DNA of 42,401 nt from an uncultured Eubacteriales bacterium (GCA_964553505.1 CAZKKX010000002.1:1-42401); one strand, 5' to 3'; counted from the first letter of the stretch, positions 12,719-40,437 are shown. Translations and numbers: made by a program. The notes: generated by a model not told the origin, from the sequence alone.

Positions 12719-12737
12719 CATGGGCTTATATTGGTAT

Positions 12738-14414: not shown

Positions 14415-14444
14415 TTACATACCTCCATTTCCACAGTATAAAAC

Positions 14445-17966: not shown

Positions 17967-18178
17967 TTGTGTCCCTCCTTTTTTTGTCTTTACGGGATAA
18001 GCAAGAAAATCTTTAACAAACAAAATTTTTCTTTCCCTAACAGCCGTACTACAGCTCTTTTATTCTTTTACAACCCCACATACTGGTACCGGCATACATA
18101 AGGAGGTTGAGTATATCCTGTTTAACAATTATCTATTTTGTGATTTACTTTATTTATAATTTTAGTATATTTTTGTTA

Positions 18179-19123: not shown

Positions 19124-19174
19124 ATTCTGTCTCTCCTTTCTTTATTATTCTATTCCAATACTAATCAAATTTTG

Positions 19175-20515
19175 TTAGACCATGGAGTCTGGCAGCCATA
19201 AGATCAACTGTGGAACGAATATAACCAATATCAGCAAAATAGCCATCATAGCCAGGAAAGGCATCGATCCTCGGAATATTTCTCCAACGCCGACACGTTC
19301 CTTCAGTTTCATTCCCTGTAAAGATGATTGAACCGTAAATACGGAGATTCCAAATGGAGGCGTAATCAAGCCCATTTCAACTGCGATGATCATTACAACA
19401 CCATACCACAGAGGATCGAATCCCAATCCGATAATAACCGGCACTGCAATAGGCGTTGTCAACAAAATAATTGAAGTGGCATCCAAAATGCATCCCAAGG
19501 CAATCTGAAGTGCACATAGAACCAATACAATGATTATAGGTGCCACAGGTAATTCCACTACAAAATTTCCTATCTTATTTATAACACCGCTGAGAGACAG
19601 CATCCTGGAAAACATCTGAGCCGAAATCAAGAGAAACAGGATGGAACCGCTTGTTTTTCCAGTATCCAGTAACGCATTCCAGAAACGTGCCCAAGTAAAT
19701 TTACCTTTTACAATCATGAGCACCAAAGTGACAAAACATCCTACACCGCCTGCTTCCGTCGGAGTAAAGTATCCGCTCCACATACCGCCGAAAATAATGA
19801 TAATCAATAATACAAAAACCGCAGGTCTTAATAATACTTTATACGCAGGCTCTGCATCTTCTTCGTTTTCATATATTGCCTTTGCTCCGATTTCATCAGG
19901 ATAACGCTTTCCAATATAAAAAATAACAACACAATATAAAAACGTAAGAATAAGACCTGGTACAATTCCTCCAAAGAACAGCTTACCAATGGAAACTTGC
20001 GCAACAGATCCATATACAATCATAAGGATACTGGGCGGTATCAGCATTCCAAGAACCGAACTTCCGGCAATTGTTCCTACGGAAAGCTTTTTGCTATAAC
20101 CCAGCCGCGTCATTTCCGGATAAGCAATTTTAGAAAAAACGGCTGCAGAAGCAATTGAAGCTCCTGTGATTGCAGCAAACACGGCATTAGAGACTACCGT
20201 TGCCATCGCAACACCGCCTCTTAATCTTCTCAATAATAAATTAGCTGCATCGTACAACTCCCGACCTGATTTGGATTCACTTGCAAATAAACCCATTAAA
20301 ACAAATAGAGGAATCACTCCGAATGAATAAGAACGAATAGCATTATAAGATGTCGTTCCCAACAACTTTACTGCAGTATTAAAATTTCCAATTGTCAAAA
20401 ATACACCTAATACACTAACTGATATCAGCGAAACACCAATACCCGTCCCGGAAAATAATAAAACCAATAAGACAAGGAGACAAACTAATCCAATCAATTC
20501 AGCACTTAATAACAT
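19175..20515 (-). CDS. dctM: TRAP transporter large permease (DctM family)
   Basis: 446 aa polytopic membrane protein with DctM-like segments. It overlaps the preceding small permease gene by 10 nt, the classic dctQM arrangement. Confidence 0.9.
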   Translation of the reverse strand: MLLSAELIGLVCLLVLLVLLFSGTGIGVSLISVSVLGVFLTIGNFNTAVKLLGTTSYNAIRSYSFGVIPLFVLMGLFASESKSGRELYDAANLLLRRLRGGVAMATVVSNAVFAAITGASIASAAVFSKIAYPEMTRLGYSKKLSVGTIAGSSVLGMLIPPSILMIVYGSVAQVSIGKLFFGGIVPGLILTFLYCVVIFYIGKRYPDEIGAKAIYENEEDAEPAYKVLLRPAVFVLLIIIIFGGMWSGYFTPTEAGGVGCFVTLVLMIVKGKFTWARFWNALLDTGKTSGSILFLLISAQMFSRMLSLSGVINKIGNFVVELPVAPIIIVLVLCALQIALGCILDATSIILLTTPIAVPVIIGLGFDPLWYGVVMIIAVEMGLITPPFGISVFTVQSSLQGMKLKERVGVGEIFRGSMPFLAMMAILLILVIFVPQLILWLPDSMV

Positions 20516-21045
20516 GTTTCATCCTCCTTTTCTCCAAGAATGCTTTTACCGCGAAGCAACCAATATGCCTGTCGAATCATTATTAAAAGTACCATTAAGG
20601 AGCAGAAAACAATAGTTCCACGTACCGGCCACATAGGAAGCACCAGAGCACCTTCTCCTTCCGTTTCCCTTTCCACAATAGAATATATCAGGTTTGTATA
20701 AGATGACTTTACCATTAAAACAAAGACGATGATTCCAAATATTTGGCTGAAAAATCTCAGTTTATGCTGTAATTTAATCGAGAATTTTTCATAAAAAATA
20801 CTTACTTTTAGATGTTCATCAATCATCTGTACATAAGTAAGCTGCAGAAATGCTATAATTGTGATCAAAGCAACTACCAGTTCCGGAACACCTGTAATAG
20901 GGTTATTGAAAAAGGTACGTCCACAAACATCTGCCATGATAATCACCATCAGAAACATCGTCAGTCCACAACCGATTGCATTGAGCCCTTTAATGTATAT
21001 GGAAAAAGGATCACCTAACTTCCCTCTTTTCTTACCGTTACCCAC
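20506..21045 (-). CDS. dctQ: TRAP transporter small permease (DctQ family; GTG start)
   Basis: 179 aa with four predicted TM helices, positioned between the binding protein and DctM. AAAGGAAGTG RBS. Confidence 0.8.
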   Translation of the reverse strand: MGNGKKRGKLGDPFSIYIKGLNAIGCGLTMFLMVIIMADVCGRTFFNNPITGVPELVVALITIIAFLQLTYVQMIDEHLKVSIFYEKFSIKLQHKLRFFSQIFGIIVFVLMVKSSYTNLIYSIVERETEGEGALVLPMWPVRGTIVFCSLMVLLIMIRQAYWLLRGKSILGEKEDETCY

Positions 21046-21076
21046 ATAATCACTTCCTTTCTTCTATGCTGATTTT

Positions 21077-21108
21077 TATTTGGCGGCAGGTTTAATCCGC
21101 CGCCAAAT
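21077..21108 (-). terminator. Stem-loop between the binding-protein and permease genes (partial terminator or mRNA stabiliser)
   Basis: TATTTGGCGGC (21077-21087) pairs with GCCGCCAAATA (21098-21108). The minus-strand downstream sequence is only weakly T-rich. Confidence 0.4.
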
Positions 21109-21143
21109 ATACCTTTGAGCTTTTGGAATTGAAAGTTTAAGTT

Positions 21144-22277
21144 TTATTTTTCCGGTACTCCGGATAACCAATCCCTGACAGGTTCAAATCCGGCATTTTG
21201 TATTGCTTCAAGATAGTCTCTCATAAACGGACGGATATCATCTATTCCTTCTGCTTCTTTTGCTTCTACATATGATAAAGGTACATTATCAAGAGTATCT
21301 GCCCATTCAACTTTTTGTTCATGTGTCATATAGATAACATCTTCACAATTTTCTTCCAGGAATTCAATTGTTTCATCATATCCCTCTTTGGAGTATTCAG
21401 CTAATCCATAGGTATATGCTTCTCCTCCTGCCATAAAAGCTTGTTGTACTTCTTCTGGAAGGCTGTTATAAAAATCTGTATTGATGGTAATAGCACCCAT
21501 CCATACTGCTTGGAAGTCTCCAATTAAACCATAAGGTGCTACTTCATAAAGATATAGGTCTTTATGGAAGCTGGTAGGCTGTAAAGACATTTCGTATAAT
21601 CCTGTCTGAAGGGCATTATAAGCCTCTGTTCCGGCTGACTGTATGGGAGTCGCTCGATTTGAAACCCAGCTTAGGTTAGATCCTGCTGCACCGACTCTCT
21701 TTCCATCCAGAGAATCCAGACCGGTATAAGGGAACTTTGATGTCATATTATAGCTCTCTGCTGTTGCCCAGCCAAATGGTATCTGACCGAACTTTTCAAA
21801 TTCTTCAGTCAGTTGAGGGTATCTGTCAATAAAGTCAAGCTGAATCTCTAATGCCGTATCCACATCCCAAACACCAAAAGGTACATAGTAAGTTATATTA
21901 CCATAAGGCAGGTTGGATTGTTCGAATACATAACAAACATTGGTCACATCCAGAAGCCCATCTTGGCAAGCTTCCAAACTTTCTGTAACTGTAGCAACTG
22001 TTGCTCCCCAGGACTCTACCCATTCAATTTCATAGTTTCCTGTTTTAGCCAACTCTTCTTCCACCTTAGGCATCATGTACTTTGTCATAGCACCTATCCA
22101 GCGATAACCTTCCGGTGTTTGTCCGGCGCCAATTCGCACCCTAATCTTTTCCGGATCATTTGTCCCTTCACCATTAGGAGCAGTATCTCCTCCGCCCCCG
22201 CAAGCCGTTGTAGCTAAAGCTAAACTCAGGACCAGGAGAAGGGTTAAAATTAACCTTCCCATTTTCATTTGTCTCAT
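21144..22277 (-). CDS. TRAP-associated extracytoplasmic solute-binding lipoprotein (DctP-type by context)
   Basis: Lipoprotein signal LVLSLALATTAC followed by a Gly-rich tether. Located immediately upstream of dctQM. AAGGAGG RBS. The family call rests mainly on context and size. Confidence 0.7.
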   Translation of the reverse strand: MRQMKMGRLILTLLLVLSLALATTACGGGGDTAPNGEGTNDPEKIRVRIGAGQTPEGYRWIGAMTKYMMPKVEEELAKTGNYEIEWVESWGATVATVTESLEACQDGLLDVTNVCYVFEQSNLPYGNITYYVPFGVWDVDTALEIQLDFIDRYPQLTEEFEKFGQIPFGWATAESYNMTSKFPYTGLDSLDGKRVGAAGSNLSWVSNRATPIQSAGTEAYNALQTGLYEMSLQPTSFHKDLYLYEVAPYGLIGDFQAVWMGAITINTDFYNSLPEEVQQAFMAGGEAYTYGLAEYSKEGYDETIEFLEENCEDVIYMTHEQKVEWADTLDNVPLSYVEAKEAEGIDDIRPFMRDYLEAIQNAGFEPVRDWLSGVPEK

Positions 22278-22336
22278 AATATTTCCTCCTTATTTATAAT
22301 TGGTTAAATACTGATTACAAACGAAATTTACTTATT

Positions 22337-22374
22337 CTAAAAAATCGTATGTCATGCTTTTGTGCTGTACGATT
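22337..22374 (-). terminator. Intrinsic terminator after the MBL-hydrolase gene
   Basis: Stem AATCGTA (22343-22349) pairs with TACGATT (22368-22374) and is followed on the minus strand by TTTTTTAG. Confidence 0.5.
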
Positions 22375-22384
22375 GAAATAAATA

Positions 22385-23242
22385 TCAGTCACATTCGACT
22401 ACAAGCCCTGTGCCTGCTTCCTTTACAGGGGCTGCCTTCGCAAGCTGTAATGTGCATTCCAAGTCTGTATCATGACAAATATAGAAATTTTTGATACCGG
22501 CTTTTTTTACATAATCACAGGTCTTATCCATTTGTGCCTGGGGCACTTCATCCGATCTAAGATGGGAACCTCCCAAATATGTGTTAATCGTCTTAGCACC
22601 TGTAAGTTTTTTGGCATATTCCATAATGTTGCAGATTCCATAATGAGCACAAGTAGCTATTATAGTTGCTTCTTCGCCATTCTTGTGTTTATATGCCAAT
22701 TGGGTATCTTCAATACAATAATCGTCGATCCATTCGCCATCTTTCAGTTTTTTGGCAGTTTGCGGAAAGCTTCTCTCGAAATCATTGGTGATTTCAGTTA
22801 GACCCATATAGACCAAATTCTTTGTTAACCACAAAGGTTCTGATTGAAACTGTACGTTAAAATACTGTTCCATAACACCCATGTCCACATCCATGCCAAT
22901 ATTTTGGTTCCAGTTAAATTCATATTTTTTCAGCATGATATCGGGGTGACCCATCAATAACGTAGGCTTTCTGGCTATCCCTCTATCCTTGTAATATTTA
23001 ATCAAGTACTTCAATCCGCCGCCATGGTCATAATGTCCATGAGAAATAACGACATAATCTGCAGTAAGCAGGTCGATGCCCATTTTTTCTGCATTCTTGA
23101 TAAAATTGTCCGAATATCCTGTATCCAAAAGCACTTTAACATCTTCATCTTCTATCCATGCAGAAAAGCCATGCTCCGAATTAAAGAATTTTACAAATAA
23201 ACTGTTGTTTTCAAGCAGCAATGTAGCTTTCATAGTTCTCAC
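22385..23242 (-). CDS. MBL-fold metallo-hydrolase (COG1237-like)
   Basis: VVISHGHYDHGGGLKYL carries the HxHxDH metal motif. 285 aa. Confidence 0.85.
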   Translation of the reverse strand: MRTMKATLLLENNSLFVKFFNSEHGFSAWIEDEDVKVLLDTGYSDNFIKNAEKMGIDLLTADYVVISHGHYDHGGGLKYLIKYYKDRGIARKPTLLMGHPDIMLKKYEFNWNQNIGMDVDMGVMEQYFNVQFQSEPLWLTKNLVYMGLTEITNDFERSFPQTAKKLKDGEWIDDYCIEDTQLAYKHKNGEEATIIATCAHYGICNIMEYAKKLTGAKTINTYLGGSHLRSDEVPQAQMDKTCDYVKKAGIKNFYICHDTDLECTLQLAKAAPVKEAGTGLVVECD

Positions 23243-23286
23243 CTCTCTTTTGAAACGAACTTCAGATCGGTCGTCAAAAAATCAAT

Positions 23287-24378
23287 TTATTTCTTATAAT
23301 ATTTATTTGCATATTCTCCATAAGTTTGAGATTTATATACGTCGTAACCATCACGTTGATCGTCAAACCGATAGCGACCGATATCCTTATCTCTCGGATA
23401 CAGGAATCTGGCTGAAGGTCTGAGGATGCAAGTTTTGATTTCCGGTGTATTTTGAGCTACTATCATTTCAAATTGATTGGTTAAATCTTCAGGGTTTCCG
23501 CCTGTATTTACCCAGTTATCATAATGATCAGGAATAGCAAGTTTGGCATTTAAAGCTTGTGCTACTCGTGCACAATCATATGGTGTCATCTTATCTGTTG
23601 CCCCTGGTGCATTCCAGCCCATGTCGAAGGTAACCAAATCGATATCATATGTTTCTCCGATGGCTCTATATCCGTCATGGAACCATGTATCACCACAGAA
23701 CAGCAAATTGCCTGCAGATGTTTTGAATAAGAAACTTGTACACATCTTTTCATAAGGCTCAGGTGTTGCCTGTGCACCTGTTCTTACTACGGTTTCGTCA
23801 TAACACATTAAAAATTCTACTTCAGCGCCAGGTATCTTCATGGATTCTCCAACCTTAGATACAACTAATCTTTCTTTTGGAACTTCAAACGCATCAAACT
23901 TTAAACAAGTATCAGGTGGTCCAACAAATTTGCAATCTGTAGTTTTAAGAAGTGCTTTAATAGTGTACTGATCGCAATGGTCCTGATGTCTGTGTGTACA
24001 GAATGCCGCATCTACTTTGTTAAACTTCCACGGATTGATAAATTGAGGATTCAACCTTAACCAATTAATGGAATCTGAGCCAGATTGTTTGCATACGCCA
24101 CAATAATGCTTTTCGGTATACATGGACGGACCGGAAAATACATCGATAAACGCAATACCGCCTTCATCTGTTTTTAATACCCATGAAGGTCCTCCCAACC
24201 ACCACATAGCTGTTTGTCCTTTGGGAACTTCATATTCTTCGATTTCTTTGTTCATCATAGTTCCCCACAGGCTGGCCACGTCTTCCAACCAAGTTTGATA
24301 AGTGATGTCTTGATTGTGATTCAGCCAATCACCGGACACAATACCTCTGCCATCATCTTTAACTGGTGCATTTGACAT
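23287..24378 (-). CDS. UlaG-like MBL-fold lactonase (homolog of L-ascorbate-6-phosphate lactonase)
   Basis: Colinear with my recollection of E. coli UlaG: TAMWWLGG, CTHRHQDHCD (HxHxDH), DKMTPYDCARVAQALNAKLAIPDHYD, and a C-terminal YPRDKD...RFDD. 363 aa versus about 354 aa for UlaG. Confidence 0.8.
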   Translation of the reverse strand: MSNAPVKDDGRGIVSGDWLNHNQDITYQTWLEDVASLWGTMMNKEIEEYEVPKGQTAMWWLGGPSWVLKTDEGGIAFIDVFSGPSMYTEKHYCGVCKQSGSDSINWLRLNPQFINPWKFNKVDAAFCTHRHQDHCDQYTIKALLKTTDCKFVGPPDTCLKFDAFEVPKERLVVSKVGESMKIPGAEVEFLMCYDETVVRTGAQATPEPYEKMCTSFLFKTSAGNLLFCGDTWFHDGYRAIGETYDIDLVTFDMGWNAPGATDKMTPYDCARVAQALNAKLAIPDHYDNWVNTGGNPEDLTNQFEMIVAQNTPEIKTCILRPSARFLYPRDKDIGRYRFDDQRDGYDVYKSQTYGEYANKYYKK

Positions 24379-24453
24379 AACTAAAACCTCCTATAATTAT
24401 TTTATTTATTTAAGCCTTATATAAAGGCCTTAAATAATCGATTCAATTTACTA

Positions 24454-25653
24454 CTATCTTTCCCATGCGGCTTTAAAGATATTTACCATATCATCTTCAG
24501 AAAGGACAACAAAATTTCCAATTTTTCTCTTATTGCCATATGTTGATTTTTGAGCCATTTCTCTCATCTGAGCTTCAGTTATATCTTTTATTCCCTTTTC
24601 CTCTAAAAGCGCTTTTAAAGAAATCGGCATGCCGAGAGAACCATAAAATTCTTCTGTCTTTTCAATGCCCTCCAAAGCAGTCTTCTCCGGATCCTGGAAG
24701 TTCATTTCGCAATTCCATACATTTACCGCATATTGTGCAAACCTTGCAATATCCGCTTTATATACATAACGTGCCCAGCTGGCCCAGATGGCAGATAAAC
24801 CTGCAGCATGGTCCACATCAAACATACCTCCAAGTTCATGCTCAAGTTGATGCACGGCATAATCTCCAACTCTTCCTGTTTCCAGCAAGTCATTATGTGA
24901 AAGGCTCCCTGCCCACATCAATTCAGCTCTTGCATCATAATTTTCAGGATCATTAACTACTATTTTTCCACTTTTTATAACGGTTTTAAGCAATCCCTCG
25001 CTCATAGCATCAATAAGGTCCACATTTTTAACAGGGGTGAAATAACGTTCCATGGTATGCATCATAATATCAACAATTCCATAAATCGTTTGCTTCATAG
25101 GGAGAGAATACGTAAGTTCAGGATTCATCAAAGCAAATTTAGGACGCATCAAATTATTTGCATATCCGCGTTTCATCCAACCATCTTCGTTTGTAATGAT
25201 GGAAGACTTGCTGGTTTCGCTTCCGGATGCTGCTAATGTCAAAATTACACCTATTGGCAAACAATCTTTTGCGTCTACGAGTCTATCAAACATATCCCAT
25301 GGGTCACAATCATTGGCAATAGCAAGAGCAATGGCTTTTGCAGAATCAATGACACTACCTCCGCCAATTGCCAGAATGAAATCCACATTTTCTTTCTTGC
25401 ACAAGTCAATACCTTCATATACTAATCCCAAACGAGGATTTGGAACAACGCCTCCCAGTTCAACATAAGCAATACCTTCTTTTTTTAAGGATTGGCAAAC
25501 CTGATCTAACAATCCGCTTTTTTTGGCACTGGAACCTCCATAATGCAATAATACTTTCGAACCTCCATAAGCTTTTACCTCGGAACCCACATCTTTCTGA
25601 ACATCTTTTCCGAAAACAACTTTCGTTGGTAGACTAAAACTGAAATTATTCAT
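24454..25653 (-). CDS. Iron-containing (group III) alcohol dehydrogenase, butanol-dehydrogenase/YqhD-like
   Basis: LAIGGGSVIDSAKAIA nucleotide-binding motif, metal-binding His region HQLEHELG, 399 aa. GAGAGGAG RBS. Confidence 0.9.
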   Translation of the reverse strand: MNNFSFSLPTKVVFGKDVQKDVGSEVKAYGGSKVLLHYGGSSAKKSGLLDQVCQSLKKEGIAYVELGGVVPNPRLGLVYEGIDLCKKENVDFILAIGGGSVIDSAKAIALAIANDCDPWDMFDRLVDAKDCLPIGVILTLAASGSETSKSSIITNEDGWMKRGYANNLMRPKFALMNPELTYSLPMKQTIYGIVDIMMHTMERYFTPVKNVDLIDAMSEGLLKTVIKSGKIVVNDPENYDARAELMWAGSLSHNDLLETGRVGDYAVHQLEHELGGMFDVDHAAGLSAIWASWARYVYKADIARFAQYAVNVWNCEMNFQDPEKTALEGIEKTEEFYGSLGMPISLKALLEEKGIKDITEAQMREMAQKSTYGNKRKIGNFVVLSEDDMVNIFKAAWER

Positions 25654-31979: not shown

Positions 31980-32134
31980 GCCGTTTTTCCTTCCTTATGA
32001 TTTATCGCTACATACATTTTATTATATAATGGTGCGAGATTCTACAAATTATTTAAAAATTCTCTGCTATTTTTTTGAAATGCTTTCTTTTTTTCCTACG
32101 AATGATTATAATTTTTGTAGAAGAGGTGATTTTT

Positions 32135-32722
32135 TTGAAAAGCAAGATAAGAAAAAAGATTTTAGCTAAGAGAAATGCCCTTCCTCCGGAGGCAGTTTTA
32201 GATGCAGAAATAAAAATTATAAATCAATTGAGATATTGGTCAATTTATATAGATGCCGAATATGTTATGACTTATGTAGATTTTAGAAATGAAATCAAAA
32301 CCCATCGTATTATGAAAGATTTGATTATAAACAGAAAGAATTTGGTTGTTCCACTAACAAATAGAGATTCTACCGATATCAGACCTGTACAGATCTCTTC
32401 ATTCGATGAATTAACCACCGGTCAATTTGGTTTGTCGGAGCCTTCAAAAGAATCAAAAGAATTTAATCCGAAACTTTTAGACTTAATTCTTGTTCCGGGG
32501 ATTGCTTTTGATTTATTTGGAAACCGAATCGGATTTGGCAAAGGGTATTATGACAACTTTCTTGCACGGTTAAATGAAAATATACCATGTGCGGCATTGG
32601 CTTATGACTTTCAGGTATTAGATTACAAAATTCCTCATAATGAGCATGACATTCCCATGGATTATATAATAACACCAACCAGAACAATAAAAACAGGAAG
32701 AAAACATAGATCAATGGAATAA
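32135..32722 (+). CDS. 5-formyltetrahydrofolate cyclo-ligase (start uncertain: TTG 32135 preferred over ATG 32075 or 32102)
   Basis: LILVPGIAFDLFGNRIGFGKGYYDNFL is the family motif. The TTG at 32135 has AGAGGTGA 5 nt upstream and gives the usual N-terminus (KSKIRKKILAKR). Confidence 0.8.
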   Translation: MKSKIRKKILAKRNALPPEAVLDAEIKIINQLRYWSIYIDAEYVMTYVDFRNEIKTHRIMKDLIINRKNLVVPLTNRDSTDIRPVQISSFDELTTGQFGLSEPSKESKEFNPKLLDLILVPGIAFDLFGNRIGFGKGYYDNFLARLNENIPCAALAYDFQVLDYKIPHNEHDIPMDYIITPTRTIKTGRKHRSME

Positions 32723-32827
32723 TGAACATCAAAAAGATTAGATTGATAGAAGGATAGAGGATAAAAAAGATAATGAAGTTATGAGCTAATTTATAACACT
32801 AAAAAAGGGAGGAAAGGAGTATGGATA

Positions 32828-33193
32828 ATGAGCGGGAAAAAAACTGTTCTTATTTGTGATGACTCTATCACATCGAGGAAAAGGCTTAAGAAAACTATAA
32901 TTTCTAAAGGAAATTATGCAGTATTTGAAGCTGAAAACGGGCAAAAGGCCGTAGATTTATATAAGTCAGAGATGCCTAATCTGGTTTTTATGGATATTGT
33001 TATGCCCGTTAAAGATGGTCTTCAGGCAACCAAAGAAATTCGTGATTTCGATGAAAAAGCAAAAATTGTAATTCTGTCGTCAGTTGGAACAAAAGAAAAC
33101 CTGAAAGAAGCTCTCACTCATGGGGCAATGGATTTTATACAAAAACCTTGGGACGAGGATCACATCGAAAGCATGCTGAGAAAGCTTATTTGA
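32828..33193 (+). CDS. Stand-alone CheY-like response-regulator receiver protein
   Basis: 121 aa. Acidic pocket CDDS, phospho-acceptor context LVFMDIVMP, LSSVG (conserved Ser/Thr position) and IQKPW (conserved Lys). AAAGGAG RBS. Confidence 0.9.
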   Translation: MSGKKTVLICDDSITSRKRLKKTIISKGNYAVFEAENGQKAVDLYKSEMPNLVFMDIVMPVKDGLQATKEIRDFDEKAKIVILSSVGTKENLKEALTHGAMDFIQKPWDEDHIESMLRKLI

Positions 33194-33206
33194 AAGGGGT
33201 AAAAAA

Positions 33207-34076
33207 ATGTTCAGTCAATACTTCGGGCAATATCTTCTCAATAAAGGCTTGCTGTCTGCCCAGCAGTTAAGGGATGCCTTTGAACATGAAAAAAACACCA
33301 AAGTCAAATTGGGTGTTCTGGCCATGAATGCAGGCTTTATGTCTGCCGAACAAATTGAAAAGGTTTATAAACAGCAATCAAAAGTGGATGAAAAATTTGG
33401 TGAAATTGCAGTCAAAAACGGCTATCTTTCTGAAACTCAACTAAAAAAGCTATTGAGCACTCAAAAACAGGGTCATTTAGTTCTAAGTCAATATATTGTA
33501 GACAAGGGTTATATGTCTTTAACTCAACTGGATACAACCATGAAAGAATATATGAAATCAAGAAACTTGAACATTCGTAATCTCGATGACTTAAATATTG
33601 AAAAACTCTTGAACAACTATATCAATTTTGGGGATACATTATGGCATAAAATCTACTGGGAATACGTTTCTCTTCTTCTTAGAAATTGTATGAGATTTAT
33701 TAGTGATGTCCCGGTTATTCAGGTAGAACGAGTGGATGAAGCTTATTATTCGGAATGGATGGTATCACAGAGAATTTTTGGGAAGTTCAGCATGTTCACT
33801 TCATTTGCATCAAACGACCTTGGTGCCGCTAAACATTTGGCAGAATTGTTTAACAAGGAAGCTTTTGCTTCATTTGACGAATATGCACAAGACGGCATCA
33901 GTGAATTTTTAAATTTACATAATGGTATATTTTTAGTCAATATTTCTAACAGTGGCGTAGCTCTTGATATGGCTCCTCAACATATTTCTACTTGTGAAAA
34001 ACTGGATGAATTACCGGAATGTTACAAGATCACTTTAACCTGGATTTGGGGTGAAGTGGATATGGTGATATATTAA
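33207..34076 (+). CDS. Fusion protein: four tandem MshEN/T2SSE_N-type 24-residue motifs plus a C-terminal CheX/CheC-like phosphatase domain
   Basis: N-terminal motifs: FGQYLLNKGLLSAQQLRDAFEHE, LGVLAMNAGFMSAEQIEKVYKQQ, FGEIAVKNGYLSETQLKKLLSTQ and LSQYIVDKGYMSLTQLDTTMKEY, separated by 6-aa spacers. The C-terminal DGISEFLN...P fits the CheC/CheX/FliY motif D/S-x3-E-x2-N-x(~22)-P. The gene starts 13 nt after the CheY gene. Confidence 0.65.
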   Translation: MFSQYFGQYLLNKGLLSAQQLRDAFEHEKNTKVKLGVLAMNAGFMSAEQIEKVYKQQSKVDEKFGEIAVKNGYLSETQLKKLLSTQKQGHLVLSQYIVDKGYMSLTQLDTTMKEYMKSRNLNIRNLDDLNIEKLLNNYINFGDTLWHKIYWEYVSLLLRNCMRFISDVPVIQVERVDEAYYSEWMVSQRIFGKFSMFTSFASNDLGAAKHLAELFNKEAFASFDEYAQDGISEFLNLHNGIFLVNISNSGVALDMAPQHISTCEKLDELPECYKITLTWIWGEVDMVIY

Positions 34077-34110
34077 ACAGATAAAAGGTTCATTTGAGCG
34101 TGAGCGTAAA

Positions 34111-34142
34111 ATGAAGGATTTTGATTAATCAAAATCCTTCAT
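34111..34142. terminator. Bidirectional stem-loop between convergent genes
   Basis: ATGAAGGATTTTGAT-TA-ATCAAAATCCTTCAT forms a 15-bp perfect stem. It overlaps the stop codon of the minus-strand small ORF. Confidence 0.5.
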
Positions 34143-34330
34143 TGTTTATCATATTTTTCATACAGATCCTGAAGCTTCGTTGCCTGCATACCGCTTTCCT
34201 CAGCAAATTTCTTAAATATCTCGGCAACCTCCTGATCTGCTACTTGTTTTGAAAACATTTCATAATCTCTAACATTCTCCTGAGCATCCAACAACTTCTT
34301 GAAAATCGTATCACGTGTTCTCATTTCCAT
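34139..34330 (-). CDS. Small (63 aa) helical hypothetical protein
   Basis: The ATG at 34330 is preceded by AGGAGGG at 9 nt. The sequence is charged and helical, with no family I can name. Confidence 0.5.
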   Translation of the reverse strand: MEMRTRDTIFKKLLDAQENVRDYEMFSKQVADQEVAEIFKKFAEESGMQATKLQDLYEKYDKQ

Positions 34331-34468
34331 AATTTCTATCCCTCCTACTTTCATTATTATTATTTTTATCTTTCAGAGGAATAATTATGTATTCTTGAAT
34401 ATTTTAATTTAAATCGTTGAATTCGAAGTCAGGAGTCCAGAGGTCCCCGTCTCCTGTCATCTGTTTTT

Positions 34469-35212
34469 CTATGCTGTTTCACCACCATCAATTGGAATGA
34501 ACTGTCCGGTGATATAAGAAGCATCATCAGATGCTAAAAATGCATACAAAGCTCCTACCTCTTCAGGCTCTGCATGTCTTTTCAAAGGTATTCCTTCATT
34601 TACAACTGCAAACATTTCTTCTGTATATTCCGCTTTCTGCATGGGTGTCATTACATAGCCGGGACAGATTGAATTTGCTCTTATATATGGTGCATATTCC
34701 AAAGCAATGGTCTTCGCCAGCAGTATTACGCCTGCTTTTGAAGCATTATAATCCGCATAAAACGGATGCCCGCTCATACCATTGGTTGAAGCAGTAAACA
34801 AAATAACGCCGCTTTTCTGCTTTTTCATTCTTTTTACTGCTTCTTTTGAACAGAGAAACATTCCGTTAAGATTTATATCTATTACATTCTTCCACTGTTC
34901 ATACTCAATTTCATCAAAAGGCTTTCTGACACTTATACCGGCATTTGATATCAGAATATCGATACCTCCAATTAAATGATCTGCCTCTTGAAAACCATTT
35001 TTTACATCTGCTTCCGCACGAACATCTACTTTCACAGCTCCTACTAATCCCGGATTATTTTCAAGCACATTATCAAAAGCTTTATCATTTATGTCAAAAA
35101 TGACAACCTTTGCACCTTCCTTTACAAATCTCTGTGCGGTGGCAAGCCCTATTCCGCTTGCTCCTCCAGTTACAACAACTCTCTTCCCTTGAAGATCTTC
35201 ATGTATAGCCAT
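34469..35212 (-). CDS. SDR-family NAD(P)-dependent oxidoreductase (distal gene of the sigma-54 operon)
   Basis: TGGASGIG, NAG and the YNASK catalytic motif. The start was set to the ATG at 35212 (MAIHEDLQGKRVVVTGG), which is preceded by GGGAGG. Confidence 0.9.
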   Translation of the reverse strand: MAIHEDLQGKRVVVTGGASGIGLATAQRFVKEGAKVVIFDINDKAFDNVLENNPGLVGAVKVDVRAEADVKNGFQEADHLIGGIDILISNAGISVRKPFDEIEYEQWKNVIDINLNGMFLCSKEAVKRMKKQKSGVILFTASTNGMSGHPFYADYNASKAGVILLAKTIALEYAPYIRANSICPGYVMTPMQKAEYTEEMFAVVNEGIPLKRHAEPEEVGALYAFLASDDASYITGQFIPIDGGETA

Positions 35213-35249
35213 GTATAAGCCTCCCTTCATTTTATACCTTCTATACCTT

Positions 35250-36368
35250 TTAATAATCAATAGGATATATGACCTGTTCTTTATATCCTACTAATGCTTT
35301 AATATATCCACTCAGCATTTTATCTACTTTAATGTCTCCTGTATCCACCAAAAATGGACGGCCTCTGAGTTCAGAAATCTTCTGTTTTGTAGTAATAACG
35401 ATAATATTTTTTTTTCCTATACTCCGTACGATTCCTGAACTTATTTGTTGATTGCCTCTTCCTAAAAGATATCCCTGACCGCCAATAGGGGTAATAATAA
35501 GTTTACAATTATTCTTATTTGTTATGTCCTTTAACTGTTTCTCTGTAACATCCATTGCTACAAGCTGTTTGTTGCAAATGACATCAACGCCCAACAAAGT
35601 ATACGAAAGGCTCATTTCTTCCATAACAGCTCTGGTGGTTGTCCCAGGTCCTATTATATAGAAAATGTCATCCTCCATATTATCTATAACATCGAGTGCA
35701 ATGGCTTTCTGGGATACTGCTTCACTCAAAGGCGTAGGTGCTTTTCTATTCTGCACATAATTTTTTTCGTATGGGATTTTTAAATATCCAAATAATTGAG
35801 TATCGACTCTGCCTGCTCTGTACTCATTCTCATTGATATCCAGCACTTCTACTTCTTTCAAAGTCTTTATTTTGCCTGTCAGATAAAGTTTAGCCAGTTC
35901 TCCAGCCTTTCTCGGATTTCTGGCATAAACCGGGGAATGGATTTTGACACCGGCGGGAATTCCGATTACCGGAACCTTTTCTTCCACAGCTTTGAAAATG
36001 TCTCTTGCCGTCCCGTCGCCTCCTGTAAATAATATTATATCTACCTTTTCTCTTAACATAGCTTGAGCAGCATTTTTTGTATCATCAGAACTGCTGTAAT
36101 CCCTTTTATATTTCCAAACAACTTTTGTCGCAAAAAGATATTGCTTTGCTTCATTTTCACCCATATCCGACGAGCATGTCACTATTTCAATATCATTCCT
36201 TATATTACTAAGTACGCCGAGCGCCTCCATTGCCCTATGTGGAGAACGAGGTACAGCTCCCAGCTCTATAGCCTTCTGAACCACGTCATCCGTTCCTTTC
36301 AATCCAACACTGCCCCCCATTCCCGCAATTGGATTTACAATAAATCCTACTTTTTTCACTTTTACCAT
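35250..36368 (-). CDS. ATP-NAD-kinase-fold protein (COG3199/AcoX-like)
   Basis: VGFIVNPIAGMGGSVGLKGTD and the GGDGT signature (ILFTGGDGTARDI). 372 aa. It overlaps the gcvPB-like stop by 7 nt. Confidence 0.8.
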   Translation of the reverse strand: MVKVKKVGFIVNPIAGMGGSVGLKGTDDVVQKAIELGAVPRSPHRAMEALGVLSNIRNDIEIVTCSSDMGENEAKQYLFATKVVWKYKRDYSSSDDTKNAAQAMLREKVDIILFTGGDGTARDIFKAVEEKVPVIGIPAGVKIHSPVYARNPRKAGELAKLYLTGKIKTLKEVEVLDINENEYRAGRVDTQLFGYLKIPYEKNYVQNRKAPTPLSEAVSQKAIALDVIDNMEDDIFYIIGPGTTTRAVMEEMSLSYTLLGVDVICNKQLVAMDVTEKQLKDITNKNNCKLIITPIGGQGYLLGRGNQQISSGIVRSIGKKNIIVITTKQKISELRGRPFLVDTGDIKVDKMLSGYIKALVGYKEQVIYPIDY

Positions 36369-37948
36369 CCTTTTTTATCAATGGATTCTGATTTTCTCAG
36401 GTAACTTCTCCATGAAACACCCCATTCATCCGGTTCATCCAAACTTGTTTCATCCACCTGATGGCAGACGCTTCTGTGAGGTGCAGTTTTAATTATTTCT
36501 GGACTTTCATAAGCTTCCTGAAGAATATGTTTCAATGTTTCAATGTATTCATCCAAATCTTCCTTTGAAGGCGTTTCAGTCGGTTCTAAAGTCATAGGTT
36601 CAGGTATATAATACGGATGATGACTGGTCCAATAATGCATTCCGAAGTCCATCATTCTTCTTTGTATGTCACCTGTTGATATTCCCGTATCCTCTGCAAG
36701 CTTCTCTAATGTATATCTTACTTGTTCTATTCTTTGTTCTCCCCTAATATAAGGTGCATCTATGCACTCTACCTCCATTAATTTTTTGAATAAATAATTA
36801 TTATTGAGAACGGCTACTTTCGCAACCTCGTAAAGACCTTCCGCACCTAAAGCCATAATCCACGCATATGCCTTTACTACCACTGGTGCAACACCGTTAA
36901 ACATTCTTACTTTTCCAATATTAAAAGAATTTCTGCATATATCATAATTCAAAAAATACTTATCCTTATCATAATCGACAAGAGGTGCCGGCAAATATTT
37001 CTCCAGTTCTTTAACAACTCCCACAGCACCTACTGCCGGACCGCCGCATCCATGTGGTGTTGAAAAAGATTTATGAAGATTAAAGAAACACATATCAAAT
37101 CCTGCTTCTTTTGCTCTTGTAACACCAAACAAACCATTGGCATTGGCTTGATCATATCCGCATAATCCTCCTACACTATGAATTAAATCCGTAAACTCTT
37201 TTACTCTTGGATTGTAAACACCAGTGTCTTCGGGATTTGCTACAATAAAAGCAGCTGTTTTTTCACCGACTGCAGCCTTGAAAGCCTCAAAATCAGGAAA
37301 ACCATCTTTGTCCGGATGAATATAAATGATTTTATATCCCATTACTGCCGGAGCAGCAGCATCGGACGGATGAGAGTAGATTGTTGTTATGACTTCATCC
37401 TTTTGCTTTGCGTTTCCTTTTTCTTCATGGAAAGCACGTATAATTGAAGCCATGGTCATAACTGCTTGGCTTCCGCCTCCTGATTGAAAACTGAAACGAT
37501 CCATACCGGATATCTCACGCATGAAACCATCGGTTTTATACATTATTTCTAAAATACCCTGTACGGTATTCTCATCCTGCAAAGGATGCAATTCCGTTAC
37601 TTCAGGCAGCCGCGCAAGCATTTCGTTTACTTTCGGGCTGTATTTTACCGTACAAGTGCCTTGACCAATTTCTATATTAACATCTGCTCCTAATGTTTCC
37701 TGAGACAACCTCATATAATGTCTTAATACTCGCGGTTGAGATATTTCAGGAAGATTCGGAGATTGTTTTCTTCTGAGTTTTTCAGGTATTTTAGATATGC
37801 CATTTCCTACTTCATCGGCAATGACTTCTTCAGCCTCCGGCACCAATATGCCTCTTTCGCCTTTTTTACTCAATTCAAATATAATAGGTTCATCCCACTT
37901 TGCCTGATGGAAGTTTCTAATTTTTGAATTTCTGTTAATTCGTTTCAT
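36362..37948 (-). CDS. gcvPB: Glycine-dehydrogenase (decarboxylating) subunit 2-like PLP protein (P-protein beta)
   Basis: LPEISQPRVLRHYMRLSQ..., GQGTCTVKYSPKVNE and the PLP-lysine motif FNLHKSFSTPHGCGGP. 528 aa, slightly longer than the usual ~485-490. AAAGGAGG RBS. Confidence 0.85.
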   Translation of the reverse strand: MKRINRNSKIRNFHQAKWDEPIIFELSKKGERGILVPEAEEVIADEVGNGISKIPEKLRRKQSPNLPEISQPRVLRHYMRLSQETLGADVNIEIGQGTCTVKYSPKVNEMLARLPEVTELHPLQDENTVQGILEIMYKTDGFMREISGMDRFSFQSGGGSQAVMTMASIIRAFHEEKGNAKQKDEVITTIYSHPSDAAAPAVMGYKIIYIHPDKDGFPDFEAFKAAVGEKTAAFIVANPEDTGVYNPRVKEFTDLIHSVGGLCGYDQANANGLFGVTRAKEAGFDMCFFNLHKSFSTPHGCGGPAVGAVGVVKELEKYLPAPLVDYDKDKYFLNYDICRNSFNIGKVRMFNGVAPVVVKAYAWIMALGAEGLYEVAKVAVLNNNYLFKKLMEVECIDAPYIRGEQRIEQVRYTLEKLAEDTGISTGDIQRRMMDFGMHYWTSHHPYYIPEPMTLEPTETPSKEDLDEYIETLKHILQEAYESPEIIKTAPHRSVCHQVDETSLDEPDEWGVSWRSYLRKSESIDKKGW

Positions 37949-37980
37949 TTTTTCAGCCTCCTTTTCCTTAATTTTTTAAA

Positions 37981-39384
37981 TCACGAATTTAAAACTTCCT
38001 CAATCGAAGCGGCCAACTTGTCTATATCAATTTTAGTATGAATTTCTGTCACACAATATAAAGCACATTGCCCTAATTCCGGATATGCTGCCGAAAGATC
38101 TTTTCCGCCAAAAACGCCTTTCTCTACGAGTTTTTTATTTACTTCATGTACTGTTTTCCCTGTTTTATTAAAATCAACTACAAATTCTTTAAAGCTGACA
38201 CTTGAAAACAGAGATCCTTTCACACCTTTAATCTTATTCAAACGTTTCATGGCATATTGTGATTTTTGCATTATGTTTTGACCGATTTCTTCCATTCCCT
38301 TTGGTCCCATTAGCGCCAGATATACACCGGCAGTTATGCCCCACAAAGCAGTCTGGGTTCCCACGTATTCTTTTCCATGCTCTCTAAGATTTCCAAAAGA
38401 AGTTCTCTCATAAGCCACATCACCAAAACCATACTCCCCTTCTACGGAAGTGGGTGCTATCCCAAAAATCCTTGAAGGAAATTCCATTACAAATTCTTCT
38501 TCATCCCTTGTGGCAATAAATCCGGATTGACCGCCCCCATAATTCATATGAATTCCCAATGGCTGCAAATCACCGCATATAATATCTGCTCCATATCGTG
38601 ACGGAGGTTCCAATACTCCGAGAGAAATTGGATCTACCCCAACAATACTGATTGCACCAAACTGATGTGCTAAATCAGATATTTTCCCACCATTCTCTTC
38701 TAAAACTCCTATGAAAGATGGATTCTCAAAATATACGGCAGCTGTTTTATCCGAAACCTTATTCTTTAAATCATTAAAATCGATTTGTCCAGTCTCTTTG
38801 ACAAAGTCCACCTGTACCAGTTCGATATCTGGGGAACAATAATTTTTTATAATCAAAAATTTTTCCATATCCACAGTTTTTGGAATAACAGCTTCTTTTC
38901 TTCCGTTTATTCGTGATGCCATTCTTATTGATGTCGCAGCAGCCTGAGGCCAATCCATAGTAGGAACATTTACCACATCCATGTCTACTAATTCACCCAT
39001 AAGGCTCTCGTACTCAAATAAGGCCTGAAATCTTCCATGATCATTGTAAGGTTCTCCACCGTAAGCAGTAAGAAATTCTCCTCTTGAATTAATCTCATCA
39101 CATACAGCAGGAACATAATGCTGCCAGCAGCCCCCACCCAGAAAATTCAAATACTCTTTGCAGGTTTTATTTTTACCGAGAATATTTTCAACGTGCCTTC
39201 TGAGTTCATATTCTGATGGGATCGCTTTTGGCAGCTTCATATTTTCTTTTAATTTTATAGCATCCGGAACTGCTTCATGTAATTCTTCAAGCTTGTTCAG
39301 TCCTATGGTTTCAAGCATTTCTTTCTGAACTTCCGAAACTGAATTTGGAATATAAGGATGATTTTTGAATCCTTTAATTGCCAT
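37981..39384 (-). CDS. gcvPA: Glycine-dehydrogenase (decarboxylating) subunit 1-like protein (P-protein alpha)
   Basis: HPYIPNS..., FLGGG...HYVPAV, YGGEPY and a GcvPA-length protein (467 aa). AGGAGGG RBS. Confidence 0.85.
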   Translation of the reverse strand: MAIKGFKNHPYIPNSVSEVQKEMLETIGLNKLEELHEAVPDAIKLKENMKLPKAIPSEYELRRHVENILGKNKTCKEYLNFLGGGCWQHYVPAVCDEINSRGEFLTAYGGEPYNDHGRFQALFEYESLMGELVDMDVVNVPTMDWPQAAATSIRMASRINGRKEAVIPKTVDMEKFLIIKNYCSPDIELVQVDFVKETGQIDFNDLKNKVSDKTAAVYFENPSFIGVLEENGGKISDLAHQFGAISIVGVDPISLGVLEPPSRYGADIICGDLQPLGIHMNYGGGQSGFIATRDEEEFVMEFPSRIFGIAPTSVEGEYGFGDVAYERTSFGNLREHGKEYVGTQTALWGITAGVYLALMGPKGMEEIGQNIMQKSQYAMKRLNKIKGVKGSLFSSVSFKEFVVDFNKTGKTVHEVNKKLVEKGVFGGKDLSAAYPELGQCALYCVTEIHTKIDIDKLAASIEEVLNS

Positions 39385-39412
39385 TTTATTCCCTCCTATA
39401 TTATTTGTAGTT

Positions 39413-39449
39413 GTGTGAGTGAAAGTAAAAGTGTTAAGTGTGAGTGTAA
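39413..39449. repeat. Hexamer stutter array TGTGAG TGAAAG TAAAAG TGTTAAG TGTGAG TGTAAG
   Basis: Read directly from the sequence. Intergenic within the operon. It shares AAGTAAAAGTGT(T)AAGTGT with the array at 42217-42258. Confidence 0.85.
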
Positions 39450-39453
39450 GTGA

Positions 39454-40242
39454 CTATGCTATTCCTCCACCATCAACTACTATTGCGGTTCCTGTTATCC
39501 ATTTTGATAAATCACTGGCTAGAAACAATACGGTATTGGCGATATCCTCCGGCATACCCAATCTTTCAAGGGGTCTGCCTTTTGCCGAATCCTTAAGGAA
39601 AGCAATTTCTTCACATCCCAGCTGCCTACCTTCTTCCCTAAGCATATTTGTATTGGTATCTCCCGGATTCACGCTGTTTACCCGAATATTTTGAACCCCA
39701 TGGTCAATGGCCATCGCCCGAGTCAGATTAACAATTCCGCCTTTAACAGCACAATAAACTGCCGCTTTATCTCCGCCTTTAAGCCCCCACCCGGATCCGG
39801 TATTGATGATGCTTCCGCCGCCTCCTGCCGCCATAATAGGAATGACAAACTTAGACATCAGATAAGTGCCCTTTAGTCCGACATTAATAACAAAATCCCA
39901 CTCACTCTCATCAATGTCAACAACTGTCTTTCTGACAGTAACACCTGCATTATTAAAAAGAATATCCATTCTTCCAAAAGTATCTTTGATATCATTAACT
40001 GTTTTTTTTACTTCCTTTAATGAAGTAACATCGCATTTTTTAAAAATAGCCACCCTTCCTGCATTTATCAGGTTTTGAGCTTCTTCTTCTCCTTTATCAT
40101 CTACATCTATCATAACCACCTTGGCTCCGTAGGCCGACAGTAATTGTGATACGCCAAGACCGATACCTGATGCTGCTCCTGTAATTACCGCTACTTTTCC
40201 TTCAAGTGATAATACGTTCTTTTTCCGTAACAAAAACGCCAT
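39454..40242 (-). CDS. SDR-family oxidoreductase (first gene of the sigma-54 operon). The start may be TTG three codons downstream.
   Basis: TGAASGIG, NNAG and the YCAVK catalytic motif. AGGAGG abuts the ATG with no spacer, so the in-frame TTG at codon 4 is an alternative start. Confidence 0.9.
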   Translation of the reverse strand: MAFLLRKKNVLSLEGKVAVITGAASGIGLGVSQLLSAYGAKVVMIDVDDKGEEEAQNLINAGRVAIFKKCDVTSLKEVKKTVNDIKDTFGRMDILFNNAGVTVRKTVVDIDESEWDFVINVGLKGTYLMSKFVIPIMAAGGGGSIINTGSGWGLKGGDKAAVYCAVKGGIVNLTRAMAIDHGVQNIRVNSVNPGDTNTNMLREEGRQLGCEEIAFLKDSAKGRPLERLGMPEDIANTVLFLASDLSKWITGTAIVVDGGGIA

Positions 40243-40276: not shown

Positions 40277-40294
40277 TTGCATCTTTTATGCCAG
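40277..40294 (-). promoter_or_regulatory. Sigma-54 (-24/-12) promoter
   Basis: The minus strand reads CTGGCATAAAAGATGCAA, with GG-N10-GC spacing as in TGGCAC-N5-TTGCA. The -12 GC lies 37 nt upstream of the ATG at 40242. A sigma-54 EBP gene is encoded divergently. Confidence 0.65.
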
Positions 40295-40385
40295 TTTTTC
40301 AGAGTATGACAGCAACTATATGATTATTGGTTTAATGCCACTTGAACATAAACTAAATTTAAAAATAGTAATCAAAAAGAAATTA

Positions 40386-40405
40386 TTTTGCCAATAATGG
40401 CAAAA
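40386..40405. promoter_or_regulatory. Candidate upstream activating sequence for the EBP
   Basis: Perfect 8-bp inverted repeat TTTTGCCA-ATAA-TGGCAAAA, centred about 100 bp upstream of the -24 element. An AT-rich tract lies between them. Confidence 0.5.
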
Positions 40406-40408
40406 TGT

Positions 40409-40437
40409 TTGCCATGCTTTTCAATATGGGATATAAT
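40409..40437 (+). promoter_or_regulatory. Sigma-A-type promoter for the EBP gene
   Basis: TTGCCA (40409-40414), a 17-nt spacer, then TATAAT (40432-40437), about 37-49 nt before the candidate start codons. Confidence 0.5.

Follow-up and report, generated by a model that had tools for sequence, protein, structure and literature searches.

The window analysed here is a stretch of 42,401 nucleotides from an uncultured Eubacteriales bacterium (GCA_964553505.1 CAZKKX010000002.1:1-42401), and it contains an operon built around a pair of genes resembling the two P-protein subunits of the glycine cleavage system. Five closely packed minus-strand genes encode, in order of transcription, a classical short-chain dehydrogenase (SDR1), the alpha-like and beta-like P-protein subunits (PA and PB, of which PB binds pyridoxal phosphate, PLP), a protein of the NAD-kinase/DAGK fold (KIN) and a second classical SDR (SDR2); a sigma-54 enhancer-binding activator (EBP) is encoded divergently upstream (Table 1). 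An earlier, sequence-only reading of the window had described this arrangement, and the open reading frame (ORF) calls reproduce its five genes with every spacing identical. ORF and domain matches likewise identify the activator gene, and KIN, which had been described as a GGDGT-fold protein, carries that motif and matches NAD_kinase, NAD_kinase_C and DAGK_cat. The same reading had remarked on the lack of gcvT, gcvH, lpd and a glycine riboswitch in the window, and independent searches agree. tblastn with the E. coli proteins as queries gave no match to GcvT or GcvH in the window, Pfam found no Lpd-type protein among the large window ORFs scanned, and Rfam returned no glycine riboswitch in the window but a single tRNA, whose gene lies at 10451-10521. 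The window appears to be a complete contig, since 42401 bases is the longest contig given in its own database entry. Within the operon Pfam detects neither an E1 dependent on thiamine pyrophosphate (TPP) nor a Biotin_lipoyl protein, the sole TPP enzyme of the window being an unrelated pyruvate:ferredoxin oxidoreductase.

Table 1. Genes and regulatory features of the operon and its borders, in window coordinates.
Feature	Position	Strand	Remarks
EBP, sigma-54 enhancer-binding activator, 589 aa	40474-42243	+	divergent from the operon
Candidate upstream activating sequence, overlapping TTGCCA/TGGCAA inverted repeats ATTTTGCCA/TGGCAAAAT and ATGGCAAAATGTTTGCCAT	40385-40415		~110 bp upstream of -24/-12
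-24/-12 promoter TGGCATAAAAGATGCA, GG-N10-GC	40278-40293	-	36 nt ahead of the annotated SDR1 start
SDR1, classical short-chain dehydrogenase	39454-40242	-	adh_short match; 69-nt gap to PA
PA, P-protein alpha-like subunit, 467 aa	37981-39384	-	GDC-P match; 32-nt gap to PB
PB, P-protein beta-like PLP subunit, 528 aa	36362-37948	-	7-nt overlap with KIN
KIN, NAD-kinase/DAGK-fold protein, 372 aa	35250-36368	-	start overlaps PB stop by 7 nt; 37-nt gap to SDR2
SDR2, second classical SDR	34469-35212	-	adh_short match; AGGAGG 8 nt before ATG at 35212
71-aa ORF, no family	34139-34354	-	possible last (sixth) gene of the transcript
Hairpin, 15-bp stem, between convergent genes	34110-34143		likely bidirectional terminator ending the operon

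The gene set recurs far beyond this organism. A species-level scan with a KIN alignment against one genome per species matched at least 589 loci, the best 80 of which were fetched (individual loci are referred to by L numbers). In 54 of these 80, PB adjoins KIN, adjacency being defined as a separation within 400 bp, and at least four of the loci that lack this adjacency are cut by a contig end. The 54 loci span 13 named phyla of Bacteria and Archaea: the bacterial carriers belong to Bacillota, Synergistota, Chloroflexota, Acidobacteriota, Aminicenantes, Atribacterota, Planctomycetota, Desulfobacterota, Gemmatimonadota and Bacteroidota, and the archaeal carriers to Heimdall-, Bathy- and Hadarchaeota. 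The trio of PA, PB and KIN also occurs in a Thermotogota metagenome-assembled genome (MAG). Spacing is tight, KIN lying beside PA/PB with a median gap of about 22 nt across loci. KIN itself has more than 8000 database relatives, the best 120 of which share 53-73% identity. All five gene types occur together in 15 of the 80 fetched loci, and the SDR neighbours include 30 genes whose best match is SDR1 (at least 45% identity, up to 88%) and 17 whose best match is SDR2 (at least 45%, up to 89%). When 1115 neighbouring ORFs were clustered all against all, KIN, PB, PA and SDR were the only widely shared families. The conserved core is PA-PB-KIN, and the SDRs are frequent but optional companions. 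Whether the neighbourhood SDR-PA-PB-AcoX-SDR exists in any other genome had been raised by the sequence-only reading, and the 15 complete loci and the PB-KIN adjacency in 54 of 80 answer that it does. The closest genome, a MAG labelled Anaerovorax odorimutans (L001), is syntenic with the whole right half of the window.

PA and PB align full-length to both chains of the Thermus thermophilus P-protein (1WYT), at low identity: 31% between PA and Thermus GcvPA and 35% between PB and Thermus GcvPB. Identity to the single-chain E. coli GcvP is 24% for PA (N-terminal half) and 27% for PB (C-terminal half); Thermus GcvPB and E. coli GcvP share 42%. The window PB is 62% identical to a KIN-linked PB of Heimdallarchaeota and 45% identical to one from a Rhodococcus plasmid. 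In neighbour-joining trees the KIN-linked PBs, including the plasmid copies of aerobes, form one clade, from which the P-proteins of Thermus and E. coli and every fused GcvP are excluded in 100 of 100 bootstraps. Canonical-type PBs among the database representatives include fusions to GcvT (P0147) or GcvH (P0255), and no fusion to GcvT, GcvH or KIN is found among the KIN-clade PB matches examined. Family models place the pair with the canonical enzymes, PA scoring 490 bits against NCBIfam GcvPA (cutoff 364) and PB 557 bits against GcvPB (cutoff 441); Pfam GDC-P gives 202 bits for PA and only 27.5 for PB. RefSeq/PGAP labels the plasmid genes of L086, L087, L089, L090, L092 and L093 'aminomethyl-transferring glycine dehydrogenase subunit GcvPA/GcvPB', and the same records carry GO terms for glycine catabolism. 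Such labels on KIN-linked pairs are probably a systematic over-annotation, of which permissive equivalog cutoffs are the probable cause.

Divergence of the pair from the canonical enzyme is concentrated around the active site, whose residue roles we assigned from conservation and from published work (PMC4767401). The residues of PLP chemistry are retained: the Schiff-base lysine lies in NLHKSF at PB residues 290-295, a motif the sequence-only reading had rightly called intact, H193, D266 and H292 are conserved, and alpha Tyr95 is conserved in the anaerobe clade. In PB, 20 of the 68 columns that are at least 88% conserved among canonical enzymes differ in the clade. The clade-specific changes, which include AHGTN to SHPSD, T to D, DG to DQ, HGGGGPG to HGCGGPA, Y to W, A to N and HE to EQ, cluster next to the PLP-binding His, Asp and Lys, and four fixed changes introduce acidic residues. 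In PA, 22 of 42 canonical-conserved columns differ, with a concentration in the two most conserved alpha segments, both of which are near-invariant from E. coli to human in canonical enzymes. The first, TAYTPYQPExSQG, becomes TAY(G/A)G-EPYxDHG through a one-residue deletion and further changes (TAYGG-EPYNDHG in the window PA); the second, REQHIRRxKAxSNIC(T), becomes ERTSFxxRExGKE(Y/F)VG (ERTSFGNLREHGKEYVG in the window PA). In human numbering, which is chain position plus 43, the IC of SNIC corresponds to I381 and C382, and Q366 comes shortly before REQ. All three are listed near the active-site pocket, Q366 and I381 belong to a loop or domain whose position shifts when PLP binds, and Q366 lies in the lipoamide channel (PMC4767401). 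By alignment, the changed parts of PA/PB are those contacting the substrate and the lipoyl arm, and the newly acidic positions give a hint of a side chain that is cationic or polyhydroxylated. The pair thus shares with the glycine cleavage P-protein (GcvPA/GcvPB) the fold, the subunit split, the PLP lysine in NLHK(T/S)F and the neighbouring His and Asp, and differs from it in identity, clade, the rewritten alpha active-site and lipoamide-channel loops and the replaced beta invariants, as well as in a kinase-fold neighbour, the lack of gcvH linkage (with gcvT linked once) and the lack of a glycine riboswitch in the window. Judged by its sequence, PA/PB is a paralogue of the glycine-cleavage P-protein and not the housekeeping enzyme, much as the sequence-only reading had suspected of what it called an orphan pair; the separate clade, the remodelled loops and a search of the fetched loci with E. 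coli GcvH, which found none, all agree with that view.

Predicted sigma-54 control, also proposed in that reading, is the best-supported part of the finding, because promoter and upstream activating sequence (UAS) footprints are shared by related loci. EBP contains Sigma54_activat, AAA_lid_14 and HTH_8 domains, the last a Fis-type helix-turn-helix, together with a GAFTGA motif. Its N-terminal sensor region has no Pfam match, and its top NCBIfam match, PrdR, scores 389 bits, below the cutoff of 795. EBP orthologs are divergent from the module in L002, L004-L006, L039, L048 and L077. An equivalent -24/-12 element precedes the SDR1 ortholog in all seven related EBP-bearing Clostridia loci, and TGGCAA or TTGCCA half-sites, in a UAS of the TGGCAAA...TTGTCA type, occur in six of the seven EBP-SDR1 intergenic regions. 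The GG-N10-GC pattern occurs twice in the window, where 0.30 occurrences are expected; the second exact match (TGGCATCCAAAATGCA at 19477-19492, plus strand) falls inside dctM, which is on the opposite strand, and is probably due to chance. Regulators beside the trio in other lineages are of the GntR, LysR, TetR or ANTAR type, and the sigma-54 activator is a local solution of the Clostridia. No rpoN/sigL gene is present in the window. Through a reporter built on the conserved activator and UAS, the inducer could be sought and from it the substrate.

The third member of the core, KIN, has the hallmarks of the NAD-kinase/DAGK superfamily. Its motifs are NPIAGMGG, GGDGT, GIPAGVKIHS and TPIGGQGY, and Pfam reports PF01513 at 73 bits, PF20143 at 61 bits and a weak DAGK_cat match. 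Against the NAD kinase (NadK/PpnK) equivalog model it scores 19 bits, far below the cutoff of 316. With NAD_kinase N- and C-terminal domains, GGDGT and a length of 372 aa it fits the profile of AcoX or COG3199-type 'ATP-NAD kinase family protein' members. A sequence search found no relative of KIN in the PDB, and the Foldseek matches of its AlphaFold model (pLDDT 87) are weak matches to DAGK/NADK N-domains that are uninformative on substrate. Two further loci place KIN homologs in other metabolic company. On a plasmid of Peptoclostridium (E.) acidaminophilum (L085, 8007-10083) a homolog of 38% identity overlaps by 8 nt a 328-aa PLP enzyme of the HisC/CobD family, with a radical-SAM protein and an SDR nearby; this family acts on phosphate esters, and the pairing follows a kinase plus PLP-enzyme logic. 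In L016 (26-12572) KIN and both SDR orthologs occur without PA/PB in a glycan/glycopeptide-degradation locus comprising GH123, galactokinase, DPP-IV, SDR2-type, SDR1-type, GH63-like hydrolase, KIN and UDP-sugar pyrophosphorylase genes.

The trio also has plasmid copies, which give it an accessory, catabolic character. A tblastn search with KIN against 72,556 plasmids gave 13 KIN-type records, nine of which contain KIN-gcvPA-gcvPB; the PA and PB of these nine share 40-49% identity with those of the window, and none of the 13 records lies in an aco operon. The hosts are Rhodococcus jostii RHA1, R. qingshengii, Paracoccus aminophilus, Gemmobacter, Sphingomonas, Antarctobacter and Roseicitreum, and the gene order in these aerobes is SDR-KIN-PA-PB. 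Flanking genes encode APC or TTT transporters, SDR and zinc-dependent dehydrogenases (Zn-ADH), primary-amine oxidase, acyl-CoA synthetase, ArgE/DapE-type (M20) deacylase, DHDPS-family proteins and LysR, TetR or ANTAR regulators. Such aerobes normally carry a chromosomal single-chain GcvP together with gcvT and gcvH, and if this holds for these hosts the plasmid trio is an extra catabolic function. In a Pfam scan of 112 flanking genes transporters, the most frequent neighbours in anaerobes, prevailed (five of the NhaC family, four amino-acid permeases, five ABC), and no recurrent metabolic partner was found beyond them. The remaining neighbours point in several directions: M20 or ArgE/DapE deacylases, an ornithine-cyclodeaminase-family protein and a class-III aminotransferase towards diamino or N-acyl amino acids; S9 prolyl peptidases, proline-racemase-like and DHDPS-family genes towards collagen-type peptides; and GH2, GH63-like and GH123 hydrolases and UDP-sugar pyrophosphorylase towards amino sugars. 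Threonine, serine, hydroxylysine, ornithine/lysine and glucosaminate were considered as substrates and not adopted, as each suits some of these clues and none suits all. The classes named by the sequence-only reading (amino alcohol, amino ketone, hydroxy amino acid) are conjecture, and glycine is disfavoured.

The SDRs are similarly unspecific as guides to the substrate. They share about 36% identity with each other, and their PDB and NCBIfam matches are generic (dihydroanticapsin dehydrogenase, glucose 1-dehydrogenase, butanediol dehydrogenase, FabG), so that no substrate can be assigned to either. Strand beta-2 of SDR1 ends in Asp (VVMIDVD) and SDR2 reads VVIFDIND, both predicting a preference for NAD; a role for KIN as supplier of NADP to the SDRs was rejected because both carry this Asp. 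For SDR1 the true start is more likely the TTG at 40233 than the ATG at 40242, because GGAGG abuts that ATG and the L001 ortholog is 259 aa long. In E. coli K-12 (L084, 1159-1902) the SDR gene ygfF, whose product is 33% identical to SDR2, immediately follows gcvP in the same orientation, which recalls the pairing of SDR with P-protein for no evident reason.

Taken together, these observations lead us to propose, with moderate confidence, that the locus represents one copy, inducible through sigma-54, of an ancient catabolic module that is complete in itself and most likely serves an amino compound other than glycine. The core of this module would be a P-like alpha/beta PLP enzyme with its dedicated KIN, to which two NAD-dependent SDRs are usually added. 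A plausible substrate would be an alpha-amino acid whose side chain probably bears a hydroxyl group, a positive charge or both, and it would be imported by APC- or NhaC-type carriers. Binding of an effector to the activator at the UAS would open the -24/-12 promoter. The SDRs would then shift a group of the substrate or product between the hydroxyl and keto states, and KIN would use ATP to phosphorylate a hydroxyl of substrate, intermediate or product. PA/PB would form an external aldimine on the conserved lysine and break the bond between C-alpha and the carboxylate, and the resulting carbanion might be transferred to a lipoyl protein encoded elsewhere, be protonated to the amine, or expel a beta-phosphate. 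We infer every element of this scheme, including the substrate class, the order of the steps and the activity of KIN; gene content, regulatory elements, conservation, the separate clade, the remodelled loops, the prevalence of uptake carriers among the neighbours and the lack of gcvH and gcvT in the window are observed.

Several observations weigh against this proposal. Literature searches, which covered the Clostridiales sigma-54 regulon paper and its supplement, found no experiment or paper on the module, and the PA-PB-KIN trio appears undescribed as a unit, with components that belong to known superfamilies. The acidic residues of the remodelled active site fit a cationic side chain better than a phosphorylated substrate, which makes the order of kinase then decarboxylase weak. 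The KIN model matches solved kinases over the N-terminal domain only, at a TM-score of about 0.26. Equally similar KIN homologs (43-52%) are found with no PA/PB in Tissierellia, where the context is secA-prfB-tex and looks like housekeeping, in Aeromonas, and in Pseudoalteromonas piscicida (L091, 7421-9113), where a homolog of 47% identity overlaps the EF-P hydroxylase gene epmC. The function of KIN may therefore be more general than the PA/PB module and independent of the P-like enzyme. Finally, PA and PB exceed their NCBIfam equivalog cutoffs with the PLP residues intact, so that glycine may yet be the substrate; a search with E. coli GcvT located gcvT downstream of the trio in one fetched locus (L008); and in four (L002, L005, L032 and L051, from Crassaminicella, Marinisporobacter and Syntrophomonas) a glycine reductase operon lies, together with thioredoxin reductase and thioredoxin genes, 0.3-8 kb downstream of the trio.

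These last points bear on a first alternative, in which the pair is a genuine alternative glycine decarboxylase that passes the aminomethyl group to a GcvH encoded elsewhere, with KIN and the SDRs as accessories or passengers. We regard this as unlikely, and assign the same low likelihood to its corollary that the enzyme would serve as the oxidative branch of a glycine or Stickland fermentation under sigma-54 control. The equivalog scores, the conservation of the PLP Lys, His and Asp and of alpha Tyr95 in the anaerobe clade, and the grd, trxB, trx and gcvT genes just mentioned would all be expected of such an enzyme, and the M20 peptidases, S9 prolyl peptidases and proline-racemase-like genes found near the trio would suit the use of glycine-rich collagen peptides. 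An enzyme still dedicated to glycine does not, however, readily account for the rewriting of two near-invariant alpha loops or the fully supported separate clade, nor for the lack of gcvH beside the trio in the fetched loci, the presence of the trio as extra plasmid copies in aerobes, and a linkage across both domains of life to KIN and two specific SDR orthologs that have no role in glycine cleavage.

A second alternative concerns the role of KIN and starts from its resemblance to AcoX. The acoX gene is transcribed together with acoABC, next to the genes for the alpha and beta subunits of acetoin E1; its product bears the annotation ATP-NAD kinase and has no known function (PMC10107126, PMC9676059, PMC6722718). 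By extension KIN could be a non-kinase partner of lipoamide-reducing alpha2beta2 decarboxylating enzymes, as AcoX would be with acetoin E1; we find this doubtful, and equally so the specific roles it might then play, whether as an activase that binds ATP or NAD, in assembly, in regulation or as a subunit on which the acceptor docks. It is also improbable, to a like degree, that the P-like enzyme accordingly decarboxylates and deaminates, by oxidation, a non-glycine amino acid onto a lipoyl protein, leaving an aldehyde or ketone for the SDRs. The placement of KIN directly beside PA/PB, overlapping here and closely spaced in general, would suit such a partner, as would the lack of a close structural relative among solved kinases. 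So would the order SDR-KIN-PA-PB of the aerobes, which parallels the aco layout; in Pseudomonas the aco order is SDR-acoX-acoA-acoB under the sigma-54 activator AcoR. Against such a role, KIN keeps the kinase motifs NPxAGxGG, GGDGT and GIPxG, occurs also away from any alpha/beta enzyme and is not fused to PB or PA in the matches examined, and the GcvH search returned no lipoyl protein in any fetched neighbourhood.

The parallel with acetoin catabolism had been drawn more strongly by the sequence-only reading, which saw an acetoin-operon scaffold in which a P-protein has taken the place of E1. As an analogy (SDR, AcoX, E1 alpha/beta, sigma-54 activator) it seems apt, the likeness of KIN to AcoX being one of position, annotation and fold class. 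Like the acoR-acoXABC(L)-bdh operons of Cupriavidus, Pseudomonas and Clostridium magnum, the locus combines a sigma-54 activator, a -24/-12 promoter, an SDR or butanediol dehydrogenase and a protein annotated as 'ATP-NAD kinase' directly beside decarboxylating alpha/beta subunits (PMC10107126, PMC6722718). It differs from them in that its alpha/beta enzyme is PLP-dependent and P-like rather than a TPP-dependent E1, in having no E2/E3 genes, in being far more widespread and in its use of other regulators outside the Clostridia. Membership in an acetoin operon was rejected, as E1 and E2 genes are missing, and the idea of an exchanged E1 does not hold either: the core is PA-PB-KIN, the SDRs are optional and the regulators differ by lineage, which indicates an ancient module that parallels the aco layout and not a modified acetoin operon. 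The layout itself is the part of the earlier suggestion that stands.

A third possibility goes beyond our preferred proposal of an inducible module for a non-glycine amino compound, and holds that PA/PB-KIN is a new PLP enzyme system in which KIN is mechanistically required and is the equivalent of AcoX for the TPP-dependent acetoin E1. This seems to us a long shot of about the same standing as the two preceding alternatives. In one variant KIN would phosphorylate a beta- or gamma-hydroxyl and decarboxylation would drive elimination of the phosphate; in another KIN would replace the H, T and L proteins as acceptor or activating subunit. Kinases and PLP enzymes do work in pairs elsewhere, as in the PduX/CobD pair of threonine kinase with threonine-phosphate decarboxylase, hydroxylysine kinase with its phospho-lyase, and mycobacterial aminopropanol metabolism with an amino-alcohol kinase, a phospho-lyase and an SDR. 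By analogy the parts would be the same, namely a kinase, a fold-type-I PLP enzyme, an SDR and an APC permease; the kinases of those pairs, in contrast, belong to the GHMP/APH families and their PLP enzymes are class I/III aminotransferase-like, whereas here an NAD-kinase/DAGK fold is combined with a heteromeric P-protein homologue.

Modelled on the threonine kinase and threonine-phosphate decarboxylase of cobamide synthesis, a biosynthetic module would supply a phosphorylated amino alcohol or amine for a cofactor, a lipid head group or a compatible solute. The partnership of a KIN homolog with a HisC/CobD-family enzyme in E. acidaminophilum is consistent with such a role, and so are the housekeeping-like contexts of KIN in Tissierellia and Pseudoalteromonas. 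We nevertheless judge both the idea and its cobamide model very improbable, given the dedicated inducible regulators of several types (sigma-54 EBP, GntR, LysR, TetR, ANTAR), the prevalence of uptake transporters among the neighbours and the location on catabolic plasmids beside acyl-CoA synthetase, amine oxidase and deacylases. That the genes are chance neighbours forming no functional unit, for which only the heterogeneity of the flanking genes speaks, can be dismissed as next to impossible in view of the recurrence of the set in 13 named phyla of both domains, its close or overlapping genes and its single sigma-54 promoter.

The distinction between these readings matters because these genes are taken for a glycine cleavage system when the metabolism of anaerobes from sediment and gut, Asgard and Bathyarchaeota among them, is reconstructed. 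If the substrate or acceptor is another, the glycine and one-carbon fluxes inferred from them are wrong and, should our proposal hold, a widespread pathway for an amino compound is missing from current maps. If KIN were moreover mechanistically required, the module would represent an unrecognised route of amino-compound degradation in Clostridia, Synergistota, Chloroflexota, Asgard and Bathyarchaeota, many 'GcvPA/GcvPB' annotations would be wrong, and AcoX would be explained. A kinase-fold partner of this kind gives a concrete experimental handle on AcoX function.

The borders of the operon and the remainder of the window yield some minor observations. The 71-aa ORF that follows SDR2 is 91% conserved and occupies the same position in L001 and L004, and it has no match in Pfam or NCBIfam; it may belong to the operon transcript, since the hairpin at its end is the first terminator-like structure downstream. 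Just past the operon, at 32075-34076, lie genes for a 5-formyltetrahydrofolate cyclo-ligase, a CheY-like receiver and a 289-aa protein, all syntenic in L001, where no Pfam match is on record for the 289-aa protein; the proximity of a folate enzyme to a P-protein look-alike may be coincidence. A separate minus-strand catabolic island at 10727-25653 holds two tandem GntR/FCD regulators, an IlvD/Edd-family dehydratase, the pyruvate:ferredoxin oxidoreductase (1192 aa), a 3-hydroxyacyl-CoA-dehydrogenase-like gene, a TRAP transporter (DctP/Q/M), two metallo-beta-lactamase-fold proteins and an Fe-alcohol dehydrogenase. An IS110-family transposase gene at 128-1366 lies at the window's left edge.

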